Positions 3,847 to 36,559 of a stretch of 47,096 nucleotides of DNA are shown here, one piece after another; position 1 is the first letter of the stretch, and each line of letters opens with the position of its first letter. A program made the translations under genes and the position numbers. The stretch comes from a virus (lineage: Duplodnaviria > Heunggongvirae > Uroviricota > Caudoviricetes). The DNA lies in IMG/VR virus record IMGVR_UViG_2802429246_000002. The stretch is one strand, 5' to 3'. The notes under the pieces were generated by a model that worked only from the letters and a program-made list of their open reading frames with translations, ran no database searches and was not told the DNA's origin.

Positions 3847-6588
3847 TTACACAGCACAAATCCTGATCGTTGCTGTGATATCAGTTTCAGTGCCATTATT
3901 GAGATATAACCTACCGCCTACAATTGACATCCCAATTTTGGTAGAAACTTCTTCATCTGCAGATGTCACCACCACGTTTGTTTTATTGTAATTACCAAGC
4001 GGAGATTCATCAGTCGAATGCCCTGGCCTCAATATCATTCCTACACCTGCAAAGAAATTAGGGTTCCCATTATTTATAACATCCACACAATAAGATAATG
4101 CGCTTTTACTAAGTGGGATGGATTGACTTGTATGTGCCTTAACCCACATTTCCCATACGTATTCACTTTTACGTATCGCCCCCTCACATGAACCAGATGC
4201 ATGGAATAACTTTCCTGATGATACAGTGTTATTGGTGCCAACAAGAATCATCTGATTTCCACCACCAAAGCCAAAGTTATCACCAAGAGATGGTCCACCA
4301 TTAATCCTTAACATATATGCATCAGTACTGCCTGATGAGGCGTCAGAGTTATCTATATATACAGTGCAATCACTTATAAGAACGCCATCAATCTTATCTG
4401 GCGCAACAGTATTAGTTTGGACAACGACGAACTCTCTGGTGGTAGATTTTGCCGAACAACCTTTAATAATTGTTGGTGTTTCAAGAGTATATGTTTGAGT
4501 AATAAAAATGAAATTACTAGGACGAAGCTTCCGATTAACAGCATTTGTTGCTTTCCACCATTTATTGCTTGATTCGGTTGTTTCGCTAAAGCCATCAATA
4601 TAGTGAGTATCGGTAATAGTAATTCCGCTACCATAATACAAACGAATCGGAAGGTTGCTAAATCCTCTAATCTCGCAACCAGATACTATCTCATTAAAAC
4701 CACGTATAGTTGCGCCATAAAAACAGTCAACTGCCACATTGTCTTTATATTTAGACTCTGCGGCACCACCATGACTACCAAACCCATAGGAAAATTCAGT
4801 CCATCCTTCCGATGGAAATATAATCCCACCAGTATAACCAGTTCCGCCACCACGCATTGTAATGTTGGTTACATTATTGTAGAGAGAACTCCAGTTACTC
4901 CCTCCAATATCAACACCACGCCTACAACAAGATGCATTGATATTGTCCACAGTGCAGTAACTGCTATTGGAAACAGAAACAGCATTACCTGTACCACCAT
5001 CACCATTGAAAACTCTATTGATTCCATACAGAGATGTATCACGAACAGTGCATCTTAAGCAGCCTAACAAGGTAATCCCAGCATTCGGGAAATTTTCCAC
5101 ACTAGCGAAACTGGCAATACCGTTTACGCAATATTCGAAGACAACCCCATCATAAGCTTTTTGTCCGCTAGTTGCATTGGTAACTAACCCGTGTATCGTC
5201 CCAACATGAAAATCTCCAGAAATATTAAATGTAGCAGGATAGACAGCCCAGGCCTCAGCTTGCCTAACCAAACGAAATGTATCTCCTGCAGCAGGTTTAT
5301 TTGGGAATCCAGTGTCAGCATTACTACCAATAGTAAATGTTTTTGTGTCATCATCATATGCTGTAACCATTTTGGTTATACCAGCATTATCTCCCGTTAA
5401 TCCAAGAATTTTATAGAGTGCATCACGAGGTGGTGATGTCACTGAGAAATTTGTAGATGTAAATGATTGCCCACTAGATGCGCCAGTAACTGTAACTGTA
5501 ATATTCCCTCCTGAACGGTAGTAATAATATGCATCCTGATCTAATGTCACATTATTTCCACTAAGTGAAACGACTTCAACAATTTGCCCTTCCTGCCAAC
5601 TTCCTCGGTTATCTCCACGAACAAGGTGGTTATTACGAATAACAAGCAAATCTCCGACAGAAATATCAGACACATCATCAAGAGTCACAGTCTTTTCGCC
5701 CAATGATATATCTCTCGTTATGAAATTATGCAATTTAGTACTTGCAATTCCACCAAGCTTTATTGCTGAACCTTCATATCCTACAACATTATTTGTGCAG
5801 AGCAATTCAACCTTTCCTGATGCCACCCAATCGAAGCAACCATATGGAATGGAAATATCTATTTGTGAAAACAGGTACTTTCCTGCTGTCCATTCCAAAC
5901 GCTTTCCGTTAGATGCGCAGTAAATGATGGCATTTGTTATTGCGTCTGTATCGTCAGTAATGCCATCCCCTTTTGCACCAAAATCGCGAACATTGACGAT
6001 ATCCCGCATCTTATCCTGGAACGTTCTGTATACTGCTCCAGAACCATACTGAATAAACAAACCAAAACCACCAACAACTCCGGCGATTGCAGCATCGACA
6101 TAATTACGCATTGAGCGATTATTTACAGCATCCTGCTCAAGTGATGGATCTGCAAGGTTAGAAATTCTGTTTTGTTTTGCATCGTAATATTTTGCAAGCA
6201 GAGAGGGCTTCATCAATGCACGTCTGAACCACCCAAAACATTGCTGGATCAGCATCGTCAGATAGTCAAAGGCATCCTCATGCACTTCGGGGAAAAATTT
6301 TCCCTGATTGCGAAGGTCTGTCTCCTGCACTACATCAAGCACACGATCTATCGTAATTCGCCATCCAGCAGCAAGCGGAGACGGAAGAACCACAGAACCG
6401 CCACTATAAGTGCCCGCCCCAGTTACCGTATAACCGGTATCCAGAACCAATTCTGTTACGTTCCCGTTCAGGTCAGACACCTGAACAACCAGGTCTGATT
6501 TTCTGAAAATTCGAAAAGTATACGGAAACGATGTCGTAACGCCGTTACCTGTGTATTCGTTGTGGTCAACTTCGGTTGAGACCGTCAT
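3847..6588 (-). CDS. Tailspike protein with pectate-lyase-like beta-helix (probable polysaccharide depolymerase)
   Basis: 913 aa; conserved podovirus tailspike N-terminal head-binding region; RDFGAKGDGITDDTDAI beta-helix motif; Ser/Thr/Gly/Asn-rich repetitive body. Confidence 0.8.
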   Translation of the reverse strand: MTVSTEVDHNEYTGNGVTTSFPYTFRIFRKSDLVVQVSDLNGNVTELVLDTGYTVTGAGTYSGGSVVLPSPLAAGWRITIDRVLDVVQETDLRNQGKFFPEVHEDAFDYLTMLIQQCFGWFRRALMKPSLLAKYYDAKQNRISNLADPSLEQDAVNNRSMRNYVDAAIAGVVGGFGLFIQYGSGAVYRTFQDKMRDIVNVRDFGAKGDGITDDTDAITNAIIYCASNGKRLEWTAGKYLFSQIDISIPYGCFDWVASGKVELLCTNNVVGYEGSAIKLGGIASTKLHNFITRDISLGEKTVTLDDVSDISVGDLLVIRNNHLVRGDNRGSWQEGQIVEVVSLSGNNVTLDQDAYYYYRSGGNITVTVTGASSGQSFTSTNFSVTSPPRDALYKILGLTGDNAGITKMVTAYDDDTKTFTIGSNADTGFPNKPAAGDTFRLVRQAEAWAVYPATFNISGDFHVGTIHGLVTNATSGQKAYDGVVFEYCVNGIASFASVENFPNAGITLLGCLRCTVRDTSLYGINRVFNGDGGTGNAVSVSNSSYCTVDNINASCCRRGVDIGGSNWSSLYNNVTNITMRGGGTGYTGGIIFPSEGWTEFSYGFGSHGGAAESKYKDNVAVDCFYGATIRGFNEIVSGCEIRGFSNLPIRLYYGSGITITDTHYIDGFSETTESSNKWWKATNAVNRKLRPSNFIFITQTYTLETPTIIKGCSAKSTTREFVVVQTNTVAPDKIDGVLISDCTVYIDNSDASSGSTDAYMLRINGGPSLGDNFGFGGGNQMILVGTNNTVSSGKLFHASGSCEGAIRKSEYVWEMWVKAHTSQSIPLSKSALSYCVDVINNGNPNFFAGVGMILRPGHSTDESPLGNYNKTNVVVTSADEEVSTKIGMSIVGGRLYLNNGTETDITATIRICAV

Positions 6589-6691: not shown

Positions 6692-6708
6692 ATTACCTTT
6701 CAGGTAAT
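6692..6708. promoter_or_regulatory. 17-bp inverted repeat attacct-ttc-aggtaat (operator-like site A)
   Basis: Exact 7-bp arms, reverse complements of each other; member of a family of at least 13 sites. Confidence 0.6.
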
Positions 6709-6783: not shown

Positions 6784-7041
6784 ATGCAGCAGTATCACTA
6801 TCCACTGGAAGACGGATTTACCGAAAGGATTCACACGCCGGGAGGCGTCAGATCACTGGTGGAGGGATCGCACTTGATGAAATTACTCCGGGATCTCGAT
6901 AAGGATGGATTTAATGTCGATGGCCCACTTGCCGAACTGACTGCACTGATTAACTACGTCACCAGCTCACAGATGTCTATGCAGGATCTGCAAACACATC
7001 TCGACTATTGTGCCGAACAATTACGAAAACAAACCCGGTAA
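6784..7041 (+). CDS. Small antirepressor-like protein (homolog of the C-terminal domain of the antirepressor at 8190..8885)
   Basis: 85 aa from MQQYHYPLEDGF; aligns with C-terminus of the 8190 ORF (Y..PL..G...IH.P.GV..L.E.S.LM.LL..L..DG..V.G..AELT); LexA box upstream. Confidence 0.6.
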   Translation: MQQYHYPLEDGFTERIHTPGGVRSLVEGSHLMKLLRDLDKDGFNVDGPLAELTALINYVTSSQMSMQDLQTHLDYCAEQLRKQTR

Positions 7042-7063
7042 ATTTAAAGGCCGCAAGAGCGGC

Positions 7064-7792
7064 CTATCGTTTCGCTTTGTGCTCGTCCCAGCACGTTTTG
7101 CACCATGCCATTAAGCCGTCCGCATTTTGATTATTAGGGTAAAAGCTGGTTCGTTTTCTGCGGACATTACAAATTGGGCACCACTTCATATGACGTGTAT
7201 TCTTTGGGCCATCGAGACACCTTGCACACCACTTAGTCAATCCATCTGGATTTTTTGACGATTTCCTGAATTTTTCATATGGAAGGTTTATTCTGCATCG
7301 CAAGCACTGCTTGCTACCGCTTGAAACTCTGTTAGCTGATTCTTCTTTTGGCGGCGATACAGAAGATATTCTTGCTGGCTCTGATACTGCCTGAGGTGCT
7401 TTTTTAAATGACTGAGACGATATGTCATCACCAGGGAATCTTCCATGATATGCCGGACGCGTTGACACTCCAGGTGGAAGCTCAGCTGTAAACGGCTTTG
7501 GCTGAATCAGTTGCCTCTCTTTTGCTAACTCCTGCTGTTTATAATATGTCTGGATTACCGCACTATCATAAGCAGGAGGTGCGGAAATATTAGGCGCATT
7601 ACCTCCAGTTTTTTGAAACTGAGTAGAGGTGTGTTCTATCACCTGTGTACGATTAATCGTTATCTCCCCATCTTCGGTCTTTATCGTTTTGTTATGATTA
7701 ACGACCGTACGATCAGAGATCTTAGTCTTGTTCTGGTTGATAACGTAAATAATCACCGTAACCACACCAACAACTATCCAGAAAACTTCCAT
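7064..7792 (-). CDS. Membrane-anchored protein with Pro-rich linker and tandem C-terminal zinc-ribbon repeats
   Basis: N-terminal TM helix; two repeats of C-x2-C-x(13-17)-DGL-x2-WC-x2-C; GAGGAA RBS; operator-like site 20 bp upstream. Confidence 0.6.
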   Translation of the reverse strand: MEVFWIVVGVVTVIIYVINQNKTKISDRTVVNHNKTIKTEDGEITINRTQVIEHTSTQFQKTGGNAPNISAPPAYDSAVIQTYYKQQELAKERQLIQPKPFTAELPPGVSTRPAYHGRFPGDDISSQSFKKAPQAVSEPARISSVSPPKEESANRVSSGSKQCLRCRINLPYEKFRKSSKNPDGLTKWCARCLDGPKNTRHMKWCPICNVRRKRTSFYPNNQNADGLMAWCKTCWDEHKAKR

Positions 7793-7811
7793 TGCTTTTC
7801 CTCACAATAAC

Positions 7812-7828
7812 ATTACCTTAAAGGTAAT
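7812..7828. promoter_or_regulatory. 17-bp inverted repeat attacct-taa-aggtaat (site B)
   Basis: Exact arms; about 20 bp upstream of the minus-strand gene starting at 7792. Confidence 0.6.
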
Positions 7829-7904
7829 ATCTTGCTTTCAGGTGATCAAGCATTAAACGCAACCAACCAAATACGGTTGATTTTAATATTTATTCGCGTT
7901 TATC

Positions 7905-7921
7905 ATTACCTTTGCGGTAAA
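7905..7921. promoter_or_regulatory. 17-bp inverted repeat attacct-ttg-cggtaaa (site B2)
   Basis: Same motif family with one arm mismatch. Confidence 0.5.
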
Positions 7922-8189
7922 TTTACATCGCACTCCTCTTGTGCCATAGTAATCGGGCACTGGCAAAATCCAGTGCCGGGATTGGCGTCCCGGATTACTA
8001 AAAGGCGCATTCACCGCGCAAGCGGTTTTTTTATGCGTATAGCACGGCCACATTCGTATTATGGTGGGCTGTGTGGGGGCACCGAAAGGTGCGCCGGGTC
8101 CTTTTAGCCGGTTACGCCAACCCTGCACAGTTCACCACCAACCGATTGGCGTCGGTAGTGGTGATTAACCAGACTAAAAGGTAACCACT

Positions 8190-8885
8190 ATGACAGCTAC
8201 AAAAAGCACGTCCATTTTTTCTTTCGAATCCCAAGCCGATATACGGGTAATCGTCATTAATGGTGAGCCATGGTTTATCGCTTCAGATGTTTGTCGGGCT
8301 ATAGGCATAGCAAACCATCGAGATGCTGTTCGAAAACTTGATGATGATGAGAAGGGCGTCGCTTCAACCGACACCCCTGGCGGTGAGCAAGAATCGATCA
8401 TTATCTCCGAGTCAGGCCTCTACACACTGATCCTCCGCTGCCGCGATGCGGTGACACCAGGCACTATCCCCTACCGCTTTCGTAAATGGGTTACAGGTGA
8501 GGTTCTTCCTCAGATCCGCCGCACCGGAAGTTACATTAAAAACTCGCTCCCGCAGGAAGAACGCATAAAGATGGTTGCCGACCAGGTTGCCAACGCCACG
8601 GCGTCAGCAGTAATGCAGGCGATGAAGATAGAGAACAAAACCTACAGCGCCCCGCTGAAGCCAGGATACCGCAGTCTGATTCACTCGCCGTCTGGTGTTC
8701 TCGGCCTGACGGAGAACTCACTGCTGATGAATCTGCTGAACCAGTTACAGGAAGACGGGCATGATGTATCGGGCGCGGCGGCGGAGCTGACCACCATGTT
8801 CTGCTACATCGTCGGTGTGAGTAAATGCCTGCGTGATATCCAGACGCATGCGGAGTACATCAACGACAAGGCTGGGTTCTTCTGA
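8190..8885 (+). CDS. Antirepressor (Bro-N/KilA-type N-terminal domain + Ant C-terminal domain)
   Basis: N-terminal IRVIVINGEPWFIASDVCRAIG...ISESGLYTLILRCRD resembles Bro-N; C-terminal domain homologous to the 6784..7041 ORF. Confidence 0.7.
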   Translation: MTATKSTSIFSFESQADIRVIVINGEPWFIASDVCRAIGIANHRDAVRKLDDDEKGVASTDTPGGEQESIIISESGLYTLILRCRDAVTPGTIPYRFRKWVTGEVLPQIRRTGSYIKNSLPQEERIKMVADQVANATASAVMQAMKIENKTYSAPLKPGYRSLIHSPSGVLGLTENSLLMNLLNQLQEDGHDVSGAAAELTTMFCYIVGVSKCLRDIQTHAEYINDKAGFF

Positions 8886-8950
8886 CGGGCGGCGGCACAG
8901 GGATGTGCCTTTAAAATAATCATTGGCGATGTGATGTAGATTCGCGTAAT

Positions 8951-8967
8951 ATTACCTTAAAGGTAAA
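8951..8967. promoter_or_regulatory. 17-bp inverted repeat attacct-taa-aggtaaa (site C)
   Basis: Sits 26 bp upstream of the ATG at 8993 with strong GAGGAGGAG RBS in between. Confidence 0.55.
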
Positions 8968-8992
8968 CCATGTGTTTACATGAGGAGGAGAT

Positions 8993-9202
8993 ATGGGATT
9001 TTGGTTCGCTCGTACAAAAACGAGGGATAATGCACCCAGCCCTCAGGCAAAAAATGCAGAAGTTCCGGCGTCAGCGCAGGTTAACAAGCGTGGTGGAGTA
9101 TATATCTCATCACAGCAAATTTCTGAGCTTCCTGAGGTTAAGGAGATGCGTCGTCTCGCTGCTGCAATTGTTAAACAGGATCTTGCCACTGTAAGGAAGT
9201 AG
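8993..9202 (+). CDS. Small soluble protein (69 aa), first gene of a two-gene cargo operon
   Basis: Strong RBS GAGGAGGAG; stop overlaps start of the downstream membrane protein gene (TAGTG); no recognizable domain. Confidence 0.55.
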   Translation: MGFWFARTKTRDNAPSPQAKNAEVPASAQVNKRGGVYISSQQISELPEVKEMRRLAAAIVKQDLATVRK

Positions 9203-10068
9203 TGTTGCTAGCTCTTCTAATTATCCCAATCCTGGTTAGCGGTTATATTATGATAACCGCTAACCAGTATCATTATTTCCGTTTATACCGACACGAAGGC
9301 CAGCTTCTTTATATGAAAGTAGCGGCACTAGGTACATATTGCCTTGTTGCATCAGTAATAATTGCAGCCGCTATAAAATATAAATGGCCTGATTTTCACC
9401 TAGTTCACGATATGGTGGAAACTTTTAATGTAACATCAAAACCAGAAACAGATAGAATTTACATGTGGCTGCTTCTTCTCTCAGCCACATCCATTTGCTT
9501 CTCTTTGTGTTATGTGTCTGTTGTGTGGGTGAAAGATTTTCTTCTTGGTTGTTTTTATAAACGTGATATTTACGAGCAAAAAACAGAGGCAATGAAGGCC
9601 AGAGTACTGCGAAAAACTTACTCGCAGGGTTCTTTAGACTTACTATTGCTTGATGCTATTGAATCGGATCCTAAACGACCAATGCTGATTACTTTATCAT
9701 CAAACAAAGTGTATGTTGGAATAATAAATGGTTCTGGTGAACCAACGGAAAATCAGGGTCCGCATCAGCACATATCTTTTGTTCCTTTAATGTCAGGATA
9801 CAGGAACAAAGAAAACTTATCTGTCACATTCACTAATGCTTATCCAGGAGAAATACAGGTCAAGCGGACTGCAGCAATAAGAGGAATTAGCAGAAAGAAA
9901 GTGCCAGGACTTGAGATCATGGTGTCTATTGACGAAATAAGTTATATATCATGGTTTGATTTTGAAGTATATAAAGCAACAAATAACAAAGTAGAATCCA
10001 GGGGGCACGTTATTCGTGTTACCAAAAATGGAAGAAATATATATCAAAGAAATAGCAAAAAAGAATAG
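9202..10068 (+). CDS. Integral membrane protein (3-4 N-terminal TM helices) with ~150 aa C-terminal soluble domain; unknown function
   Basis: 288 aa; GTG start overlapping upstream stop; AT-rich codon usage; followed by intrinsic terminator. Confidence 0.65.
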   Translation: MLLALLIIPILVSGYIMITANQYHYFRLYRHEGQLLYMKVAALGTYCLVASVIIAAAIKYKWPDFHLVHDMVETFNVTSKPETDRIYMWLLLLSATSICFSLCYVSVVWVKDFLLGCFYKRDIYEQKTEAMKARVLRKTYSQGSLDLLLLDAIESDPKRPMLITLSSNKVYVGIINGSGEPTENQGPHQHISFVPLMSGYRNKENLSVTFTNAYPGEIQVKRTAAIRGISRKKVPGLEIMVSIDEISYISWFDFEVYKATNNKVESRGHVIRVTKNGRNIYQRNSKKE

Positions 10069-10088
10069 CCCGCGCCGCGGGCTTTTTT
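10068..10088 (+). terminator. Rho-independent terminator (GC stem gcccg/cgggc + T6)
   Basis: Hairpin followed by TTTTTT directly after the stop of the 9202..10068 gene. Confidence 0.6.
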
Positions 10089-10160
10089 GTGGACGAAACA
10101 AAAGTCAGTGCTACACTCATTGACGCCACATTGAGATGGCTTATAGATGGAAATTTCACA

Positions 10161-26646: not shown

Positions 26647-26663
26647 ATTACCTTTCAGGTAAC
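26647..26663. promoter_or_regulatory. 17-bp inverted repeat attacct-ttc-aggtaac (site D)
   Basis: Same motif family; upstream of the GC-rich structured region and tRNA. Confidence 0.5.
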
Positions 26664-26984: not shown

Positions 26985-27061
26985 GTGGCATTAGCTCAGC
27001 TGGACAGAGCAACCGCCTTCTAAGCGGTTGGTCGCAGGTTCGAATCCTGCATGCCACGCCA
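26985..27061 (+). tRNA. tRNA-Arg (anticodon UCU), phage-encoded
   Basis: Manual fold: acceptor GTGGCAT/ATGCCAC, D-stem GCTC/GAGC, anticodon stem ACCGC/GCGGT with loop CTTCTAA, T-stem GCAGG/CCTGC with loop TTCGAAT, discriminator G, encoded CCA; sequence differs from E. coli argU. Confidence 0.85.
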
Positions 27062-35820: not shown

Positions 35821-35886
35821 AGCTATTGCCTGATATTTATTTCAGATAATAAATATTCACCCATAAGGTAACAAAAATCAAGGATA

Positions 35887-35920
35887 GTTACCTATGAGGT
35901 GCATTTACCTGTTGGGTAAT
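35887..35920. promoter_or_regulatory. Tandem operator-like sites gttacct-atg-aggtgca and tttacct-gtt-gggtaat in the divergent immunity intergenic region
   Basis: Two adjacent 17-bp sites of the aTTACCT-N3-AGGTAAt family between the cro-like start (35820) and repressor start (35975); extra half-site aggtaac at 35866. Confidence 0.6.
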
Positions 35921-35974: not shown

Positions 35975-36559
35975 ATGAAAAGTATCCAGGACGTCCGCAG
36001 GCAAAATCTCAACGACTTGATCGACCGTGAATTCAATGGTGTTCAGACGCGGATGGCAGAAAAACTTGGAACTCAGGCAAATCTGGTAAACCGCTGGGCT
36101 CTTGGCAAGAAGGTTATCGGCGACCAGGTTGCGCGAAAAATTGAAGCTGCCGCCAATAAACCCCGTAACTGGCTTGATATCGATCGCTCGCTTTCTCAGG
36201 AAGGTTTTCAGCCTGTCGGCCCAAGCGACATTGGTCAGCTGGCGGCTCACAACCTGGAACGCTGGATGAGCGAAAGCCGCGACCTTTCAACACAGGGAAA
36301 ACTTCACCGCGCATCCGGCGTCGCCCAGGTAACAATCAGCCGCCTGTTAAACAATGAGGTCAGCGTTTCCATTTCCACCCTGGAGAATGTTGCATCCGCA
36401 TTCGGGCGTCACGGCTATGAATTACTGATTCACCCGCACGACCCTGCGACCATCAACTATGACCGCTCGCGCTACGCATTGTTACCCGAAACCGAGAAAG
36501 CAAAGATCGAAAGTTACATTGAATTTGTCATCAACCAGAACGAAAAAAATAAACAATAA
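35975..36559 (+). CDS. Prophage repressor (CI-like), two HTH-like regions, no obvious LexA/S24-type autocleavage domain
   Basis: 194 aa; N-terminal XRE-type HTH (VQTRMAEKLGTQANLVNRW) and second HTH-like segment (GVAQVTISRLLNNEVSVSISTLENVA); divergent to cro-like gene. Confidence 0.65.
   Translation: MKSIQDVRRQNLNDLIDREFNGVQTRMAEKLGTQANLVNRWALGKKVIGDQVARKIEAAANKPRNWLDIDRSLSQEGFQPVGPSDIGQLAAHNLERWMSESRDLSTQGKLHRASGVAQVTISRLLNNEVSVSISTLENVASAFGRHGYELLIHPHDPATINYDRSRYALLPETEKAKIESYIEFVINQNEKNKQ

Follow-up and report, generated by a model that had tools for sequence, protein, structure and literature searches.

A membrane-anchored tandem zinc-ribbon protein of an epsilon15-like prophage, a possible exclusion or abortive-infection factor linked to phage immunity regions

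Our goal was to understand what a small, membrane-anchored zinc-ribbon protein might do for a temperate phage. The gene in question occupies positions 7064-7792, on the minus strand, of IMG/VR virus record IMGVR_UViG_2802429246_000002. We refer to the whole stretch of DNA analysed, 47,096 nucleotides, as the window. It is an epsilon15/phiV10-like (Uetakevirus-like) prophage, and its closest relative is TL-2011b (97% identity). From the size and order of its open reading frames (ORFs), and from the guaA attachment site reported for phage ZX5 (PMC9782041), the end of guaA appears to be the integration site of the prophage. Our answer is a tentative one, drawn by analogy: the product may be a membrane-anchored, single-chain, DNA-binding protein of exclusion or abortive infection, with a logic like that of Rex, AbiP and PdpSau. 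The gene, its immediate signals and the parts of its product are listed below.

7064-7792, minus strand: zinc-ribbon gene, a phrog_6762 member of 242 amino acids (ORF from ATG; full-length PHROG match; 33 homologues)
7733-7786, minus strand: residues 3-20, single N-terminal transmembrane (TM) helix, predicted N-out/C-in (AlphaFold2, AF2, helix; alignments)
7625-7732, minus strand: residues 21-56, conserved Thr-rich membrane-adjacent segment, predicted beta-hairpin, with N21, T39 and G42 conserved (alignments, AF2)
7325-7624, minus strand: residues 57-156, variable Pro-rich disordered linker (composition, length variation, low model confidence)
7202-7324, minus strand: residues 157-197, zinc ribbon 1, with C163, C166, C189, C192, D183-G184 and W188 (invariant columns, model)
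7067-7201, minus strand: residues 198-242, zinc ribbon 2, with C205, C208, C231, C234, D225-G226 and W230 (invariant columns)
7799-7803, minus strand: ribosome-binding site GAGGA, 6 nucleotides 5' of the ATG (sequence)
7048-7065, no strand assigned: G+C-rich hairpin and T run, an intrinsic terminator common to the convergent gene 6784-7041 (terminator scan)

The N-terminus contains one hydrophobic helix (residues 3-20, VFWIVVGVVTVIIYVINQ), with a predicted local distance difference test score (pLDDT) of ~90 in the AF2 model. Only Met-Glu lies N-terminal to this helix, and a net-positive flank, NQNKTKISDR, lies C-terminal to it. Hence, by the positive-inside rule, we predict a single-pass inner-membrane protein with N-out/C-in topology. 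Because just two residues precede the helix, nearly the whole protein should be cytoplasmic. A secreted or periplasmic product was considered and rejected, since the N-terminus has no positive n-region and no cleavage motif, and eight zinc-ligand cysteines are unsuited to the periplasm. Beyond the helix, AF2 places strands at residues 27-39 and 42-54, with low confidence. The linker has 13 prolines per 100 residues and a pLDDT below 50 over most of its length, which differs by ~60 residues between homologues. Two repeats follow. These are C163-x2-C166-x16-D183-G-L-x2-W188-C189-x2-C192 and C205-x2-C208-x16-D225-G-L-x2-W230-C231-x2-C234. Both four-cysteine (Cys4) units, which probably bind zinc, have a pLDDT of ~90 or more, in the whole protein and in the domain modelled alone (domain-alone mean 88.8). 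The zinc domain is strongly basic (isoelectric point 9.9, net charge +14; +9 to +16 across the family), and zinc ribbon 2 carries the basic patch R211-R212-K-R214.

The protein matches phrog_6762, a family of unknown function, from end to end (residues 1-242 against profile positions 1-242 of 242, E = 3.3e-148), and has 33 close homologues in Enterobacterales. The eight cysteines are invariant in 30 close homologues and in 41 diverged family members, at identities down to 19-30%. Also conserved in the close homologues are both Asp-Gly turns, the Trp that precedes the second knuckle of each unit, and a large part of the first 55 residues. In the 41 family members, nothing but M-[E/D] stands before the hydrophobic N-terminal stretch, and a conserved Asn comes after it. 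Across 35 distinct alleles from E. coli, the ratio of non-synonymous to synonymous polymorphism is 0.24 for the whole gene; by region, it is 0.06 in residues 157-242, 0.27 in residues 1-56 and 0.80 in the linker. The gene is thus under purifying selection, strongest on the zinc domain, while the linker is near neutral. Searching 1.84 billion representative sequences with a profile of the zinc domain returned 3,097 proteins at E <= 0.001. The best 150 matches include ~40 clusters (<50% identity) of TM-anchored proteins, 180-240 amino acids long, with a common layout: M-[E/D], a TM helix, Asn, a Thr-rich hairpin with a central Gly, a linker and two zinc ribbons. The remainder of the best 150 are soluble proteins of 2-10 zinc-ribbon units. 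Note that a word-indexed protein search with the C-terminal 88 amino acids alone gave no match, which is a limit of that type of search and not of the family. The original prediction had described a TM helix, a Pro-rich linker and two C-x2-C...DGL-x2-WC-x2-C units. Sequence, alignments and AF2 models all bear this description out, the cysteine pattern holds in diverged relatives, and topology prediction agrees with one TM helix oriented N-out/C-in.

The gene occurs in 129 of 5,426 complete E. coli genomes, always labelled 'hypothetical protein'. One relative is probably annotated from the wrong start: the coding sequence of Yersinia phage YeP5 gene 1900-2634 begins 29 codons upstream of the conserved MEIFWIV start. 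The YeP5 protein also has a (TK)7 repeat, a slippage-prone tract, directly after the TM helix.

What kind of zinc units are these? Pfam Stc1 (PF12898) matches two stretches of the protein at 21.2 bits (E = 4e-4), just under the gathering cut-off of 24.8. The top Foldseek match in the PDB is 2LUY, the Stc1 tandem zinc finger (E = 4e-3, probability 0.87). Stc1 is a soluble eukaryotic protein-protein adaptor with a tandem zinc finger. A set of 103 soluble relatives, retrieved with the profile, includes 50 that have a Stc1 match at E <= 1e-4 (the strongest at E = 2.8e-18). The same 103 proteins include matches to HNH (11), HNH_5 (11), Endonuclease_7 (10), Bro-N (2), KilA-N (1) and superfamily 1 helicase (1). 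Other PHROG matches sit on the N-termini of endonuclease VII (EndoVII), HNH and primase families, and structural neighbours in BFVD are mostly HNH or EndoVII endonucleases, together with 'Stc1 domain' proteins. By these profile and structure matches, the C-terminal region singled out for such searches consists of Stc1-type zinc ribbons, a module placed before HNH and EndoVII nucleases.

No nuclease accompanies the module here. Neither Pfam HNH nor Endonuclease_7 matches the zinc-ribbon protein, and no catalytic His or Asn is conserved in the 41-member family alignment, where invariance or near-invariance is confined to columns of Cys, Gly, Trp, Asp-Gly, Phe and Lys/Arg. A degenerate HNH nuclease was rejected for lack of conserved catalytic residues (His, Tyr or Asn). 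Because the units are strongly basic and have no conserved catalytic residues, they would be expected to bind nucleic acid, most likely DNA, without cutting it. As a separate observation, there is a large class of soluble proteins with 2-10 tandem Stc1-type ribbons, some of which end in HNH or EndoVII. Other such arrays are fused to helicases, HEAT repeats, Bro-N or KilA-N. The class as a whole is abundant in giant viruses too.

The position of the gene in other elements is informative. In at least 10 lineages, defined as proteins under about 50% identical to one another, the gene lies directly 3' of a CI-type repressor with helix-turn-helix (HTH) and S24 domains, on the same strand, with gaps of 15-54 nucleotides. 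These lineages comprise Aeromonas phage phiARM81mr and its relatives, three unassigned contigs, Acinetobacter, Marinobacterium and Neptunomonas genomes, and five further viral contig groups. No promoter or terminator was found in the two cI-gene junctions scanned. We propose that, in many temperate phages other than epsilon15-like ones, the gene is co-transcribed with cI, and so expressed in the lysogen. In three more lineages, the gene is convergent with the repressor gene. Some relatives are beside pRha or KilA-N genes, and one, preceded by a small HTH gene, adjoins the integrase gene in a P4-like satellite. In the window, the repressor has no S24 domain and the gene sits with antirepressors. 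Hence, the gene seems to follow whichever module controls immunity. In one lambdoid prophage, we also noted an AAA_15/AAA_21 and RloB pair (PARIS-like, 8182-10156) ~1.5 kb from the zinc-ribbon gene, with pRha between.

In epsilon15-like prophages, the gene is accessory. It is missing from phiV10, ZX5 and others, which keep both flanks. Among 50,697 phage records, relatives are encoded only by TL-2011b, Yersinia phages YeP4-6 and Aeromonas phage phiARM81mr. In TL-2011b, the region is annotated merely as a misc_feature, 'similar to hypothetical protein', spanning the gene and the isrK and C4 RNAs. The island that holds the gene lies between the tailspike gene (3847-6588) and the ejection-protein genes in all prophages of this type examined. 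Its layout resembles that of the P22 sieA/immI region. In the window, the gene is on the minus strand between the plus-strand gene 6784-7041 and the isrK/C4/ant module (7957-8885). Prophages of Serratia, Providencia, the Enterobacter/Citrobacter type, Yersinia and others have the same island, and encode proteins with 42-63% identity. In those genera, the gene is co-oriented with antirepressor genes and, in most, lies directly beside the ejection-protein genes. Only the E. coli lineage has the minus-strand orientation. A role in lysis, or as a holin, was rejected because the lysis genes are elsewhere (endolysin, 1983-2777; DUF2514 spanin-like, 1489-1986) and because the gene is missing from sister phages.

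Expression of the gene in the window is likely to be tied to the phage repressor through the following features.

7812-7828, no strand assigned: perfect 17-bp operator palindrome ATTACCTTTAAGGTAAT (ATTACCTT-N-AAGGTAAT), ending 19 nucleotides before the ATG
7821-7849, minus strand: predicted sigma-70 promoter, with -35 element TTGATC at 7849-7844, a 17-nucleotide spacer and -10 element TACCTT at 7826-7821, inside the operator (sequence)
35975-36559, plus strand: prophage repressor, 194 amino acids, HTH type, no S24 domain (synteny with the ZX5 'repressor'; operators flank the gene)

The palindrome motif occurs 9 times in the window at up to 3 mismatches, with 0.14 expected. Its core, TTACC-N5-GGTAA, has 17 copies against 0.81 expected, and no shuffle reached 17. 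The motif is present two to three times between the repressor gene and the divergent cro-like gene (35857-35919). Further copies precede the antirepressor RNAs, the gene for an 85-amino-acid protein at 6784-7041 (with its own operator at 6693-6707), gene 8993, the integrase gene and others; example sites begin at 6693, 7813, 7906, 8952, 26648, 27265, 30002, 33556, 33618, 35905, 36617, 36679 and 41761. Operators front nearly every early or accessory transcription unit, and the left half-site doubles as a -10-like TACCTT. Since copies lie in the repressor/cro intergenic region and before other transcription units, TTACC-N5-GGTAA reads as the repressor/Cro operator of a dispersed regulon. Such an arrangement is reminiscent of the scattered C1 operators of P1. 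The repressor encoded at 35975-36559 would thus be expected to bind the operator at 7812-7828; the gene at the corresponding position in ZX5 is annotated 'repressor', and the paper on that phage tested an ORF21 repressor (PMC9782041). A tRNA gene (26985-27058, plus strand) also lies inside the prophage, between the operator copies at 26648 and 27265.

Note that a consensus promoter scan did not list the promoter at 7821-7849, whose -10 element has 3 of 6 consensus bases. The same geometry, with a -35 element, 17 nucleotides and a -10 element inside the operator, is found in Serratia (TTGAAC), Enterobacter/Citrobacter-type (TTGACC) and Providencia (TTGAAT) prophages, and in Providencia the operator palindrome is changed to TTAACC-N5-GGTTAA. 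An operator over the -10 element is a repression geometry. Therefore, the operator probably represses the zinc-ribbon gene promoter, and low expression is expected in a stable lysogen, with a rise on infection or derepression. Enterobacter/Citrobacter-type prophages also have a conserved palindrome, TGTGACATGTCACA, ~60 nucleotides upstream of the gene and just beyond the -35 element. A CRP-like reading of this palindrome was rejected, since the spacer is 4 nucleotides instead of 6. The original prediction had placed a minus-strand gene, with an operator-like site upstream, inside a plus-strand accessory island, and had called it an unusual cargo. All of this stands: the site is a real operator by its copy number and distribution, and the gene is an accessory one, neither structural nor lytic.

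The remaining features of the island are as follows.

6784-7041, plus strand: 85-amino-acid epsilon15 gp19-like protein, a free-standing copy of the antirepressor C-terminal domain
7957-8032, plus strand: isrK RNA, 77.9 bits, upstream of the Bro-N antirepressor gene
8057-8142, plus strand: C4 antisense RNA, 77.7 bits, in tandem with isrK
8190-8885, plus strand: Bro-N antirepressor gene, following isrK/C4
8993-9202 and 9202-10068, plus strand: gene pair of unknown function, phrog_5739 and phrog_3630, within the island

The 85-amino-acid protein and the Bro-N antirepressor both match phrog_450, and each finds the other in tblastn searches. The isrK/C4/Bro-N antirepressor tandem resembles the P1/P7 immI-like c4-ant module, and an operator (7906-7920) lies at the promoter of the RNAs. 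An 81-amino-acid ORF (7883-8128, minus strand) overlaps isrK/C4, and relatives carry 'ash family' or Phage_ASH calls there; both look spurious. The phrog_3630 product has an N-terminal hydrophobic segment, read from its sequence. Its gene co-occurs with phrog_5739 in other prophages of this type, and the pair may be another accessory or defence module.

How might the zinc-ribbon protein work? The chain would run from a TM helix through a short beta-hairpin and a flexible, Pro-rich tether to a rigid and very basic zinc module. This module would bind nucleic acid, most likely DNA, at the inner membrane face. The protein would then be an accessory phage-versus-phage weapon of the immunity region, acting in one of two ways. 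Entering foreign DNA might be held or blocked, which would be superinfection exclusion. Alternatively, foreign DNA might be sensed and the membrane disturbed through the clustered TM and hairpin part, which would be abortive infection. In the epsilon15-like prophage, the protein would be made from its own sigma-70 promoter, with the repressor operator over the -10 element, at a low level in the stable lysogen and at a higher one upon infection or derepression. Because Stc1-type units are common to HNH and EndoVII nucleases, the positive charge is strong and the genomic context is that of immunity regions, membrane action on DNA, which the original prediction had suggested, appears to be the best-supported reading. 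More speculatively still, the protein could be the first example of a widespread, so far unrecognised single-gene 'Rex-equivalent' of Gammaproteobacteria temperate phages. The tandem Stc1 ribbon would act at the inner membrane, sensing or trapping the DNA of invaders, so that other phages are excluded or aborted. Its gene would either follow cI directly or, as in epsilon15-like phages, be controlled by the repressor operator within the antirepressor island.

Several points weigh against exclusion or abortive infection. The main objection is that an operator over the -10 element, here and in other epsilon15-like prophages, points to repression in the lysogen, and this sits badly with a classical exclusion gene, which lysogens express. 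The phiV10 oac gene is a caveat to this objection. It is annotated for superinfection immunity and must presumably be expressed in the lysogen, and a site resembling the operator (one mismatch) also lies near its start. Searches with the protein and four of its neighbours in PADLOC-DB v2 (5,027 defence models, 2023) returned no family at E <= 0.1, and NCBIfam models likewise gave no match. AF2 confidence is low for the hairpin region. The zinc ribbons could bind protein in place of DNA, as Stc1 does. Finally, the association with repressors and antirepressors fits a regulatory role equally well.

Such a role would be that of a modulator of the lysis-lysogeny switch, with the tethered zinc module sequestering the repressor, the antirepressor, the 85-amino-acid protein or operator DNA, and so tuning induction. 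The gene travels with immunity machinery in every context. Where the repressor is of the S24 type, it lies after cI; where the repressor has no S24 domain, it lies among Bro-N, KilA-N/ANT and pRha antirepressor genes and shares their operator. Some soluble relatives fuse zinc-ribbon units to Bro-N or KilA-N, the fold match (2LUY) is to a tandem zinc finger known for binding protein, and RexA itself has a second role, biasing the lambda switch (PMC11077077). We nonetheless consider this reading unlikely. Exclusion genes, too, typically insert in immunity regions, and this genomic setting therefore cannot separate the two readings. The gene can be dispensed with, given that phiV10 and ZX5, both described as temperate, lack it; it also occurs beside int in a P4-like satellite, and the membrane anchor would be left unexplained. 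A role in regulation of another kind, as a membrane-bound anti-sigma-type factor, had been suggested in the original prediction. Indeed, H201-x3-C205-x2-C208 resembles the ZAS motif. This suggestion is contradicted by the data, and we now give it almost no weight. In each unit, all four cysteines are explained as ligands of zinc knuckles, the fold is a beta-hairpin one and not a helical domain, and H201 is not conserved across the wider family. There is no zf-HC2 match and no sigma factor gene nearby, and known membrane anti-sigma factors have their domains in the reverse order.

The operator over the -10 element predicts early, repressor-controlled expression, and two further explanations draw on this. 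The protein could help its own phage's DNA, either by tethering the incoming or replicating genome to the membrane early in infection, like phi29 p16.7, or by aiding entry at the ejection channel. The layout is that of p16.7 (N-terminal TM segment, cytoplasmic DNA-binding C-terminus), and the gene abuts ejection-protein genes in most genera. However, the family is found in elements with unrelated replication and entry, including lambdoid prophages, the P4-like satellite and small integrative elements. Its place in the cI operon of at least 10 lineages puts it on a lysogenic, not a lytic, transcript, and close relatives of this phage manage without the gene; we therefore judge a helper function improbable. 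Less probable again is an early host-takeover or counter-defence factor, which would neutralise a membrane-associated defence of the host or a prophage, or inhibit a host function such as cell division. In favour of this, the gene is accessory and mobile, and there is a weak PHROG match to a Lar-like restriction alleviation family. That match covers only the generic zinc-ribbon part, and Pfam Lar_restr_allev is found in 1 of the 103 relatives. No target is indicated, and co-transcription with cI in many lineages is not expected of a counter-defence gene.

We return to exclusion or abortive infection, and to what it would mean. The slot after cI, classically occupied by rexAB in lambda, is where temperate phages keep functions that protect the lysogen, and the zinc-ribbon family fills this slot in at least 10 lineages. 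If the reading is correct, the mechanism would be a very compact one, in which a single gene provides both membrane anchor and zinc-ribbon DNA binder. It would also be the first cellular role for a bacterial Stc1-type zinc ribbon, a module whose other occurrences are all as an add-on to homing-type nucleases. The two regulatory set-ups, cI operon and operator-controlled promoter, are a natural experiment on the timing of expression that the function requires. We found no description of the protein in literature on TL-2011b, on genes that follow cI, or on Stc1 together with zinc ribbons of phages. The domain type and general logic are already known. As far as we have searched, the architecture, the breadth of the family and its systematic link to immunity regions are undescribed.

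Comparison with known systems places these features in context. The Stc1 protein of fission yeast (PF12898, 2LUY) has tandem Cys4 zinc-ribbon units with the same spacing; the module described here differs in being borne by bacteria and phages, tethered to the membrane and highly basic. The N-terminal zinc modules of phage HNH and EndoVII nucleases, PacI and Hpy99I share the same unit, C-x2-C...F...DG...C-x2-C. In those enzymes, a nuclease domain follows the zinc unit, whereas none does so here, and only binding is expected.

RexB of lambda has several TM helices, compared with one in the zinc-ribbon protein. The likeness to RexA/RexB, an analogy drawn from PMC11077077, is twofold. In at least 10 lineages, the gene stands directly 3' of a CI-type repressor gene that has the same orientation, and the protein joins a part in the membrane to one that probably binds DNA non-specifically. 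The differences are that one polypeptide is involved instead of two, that a tandem Cys4 zinc ribbon replaces the RexA fold, and that the gene in the window is ~28 kb from the repressor gene, in the antirepressor island and under its own operator-controlled promoter. As to homology with RexA or RexB, there was no match at E <= 0.1 in PADLOC-DB, a database that includes Rex models.

AbiP, a lactococcal abortive-infection protein, and PdpSau, encoded by an accessory gene of S. aureus prophages, are similar in architecture only: each is a single chain with an N-terminal membrane helix and a positive cytoplasmic domain. For PdpSau, an N-terminal membrane helix, a positive cytoplasmic C-terminus and membrane depolarisation have been described; the cytoplasmic domain of AbiP binds nucleic acid, and the same is proposed for PdpSau (PMC10127798). 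Both have an OB-fold-like domain in place of the zinc ribbon, share no homology with the protein described here and belong to Gram-positive hosts. The layout of phi29 p16.7 is also alike, in that an N-terminal TM anchor is joined to a C-terminal DNA-binding domain in a protein expressed early. This phage membrane protein binds the DNA of its virus, and its proposed role is to bring that DNA to the membrane (PMC4974454). Its fold is unrelated, and it serves the protein-primed replication of one phage family. The zinc-ribbon family, unlike p16.7, is spread over unrelated elements, often in a lysogenic operon.

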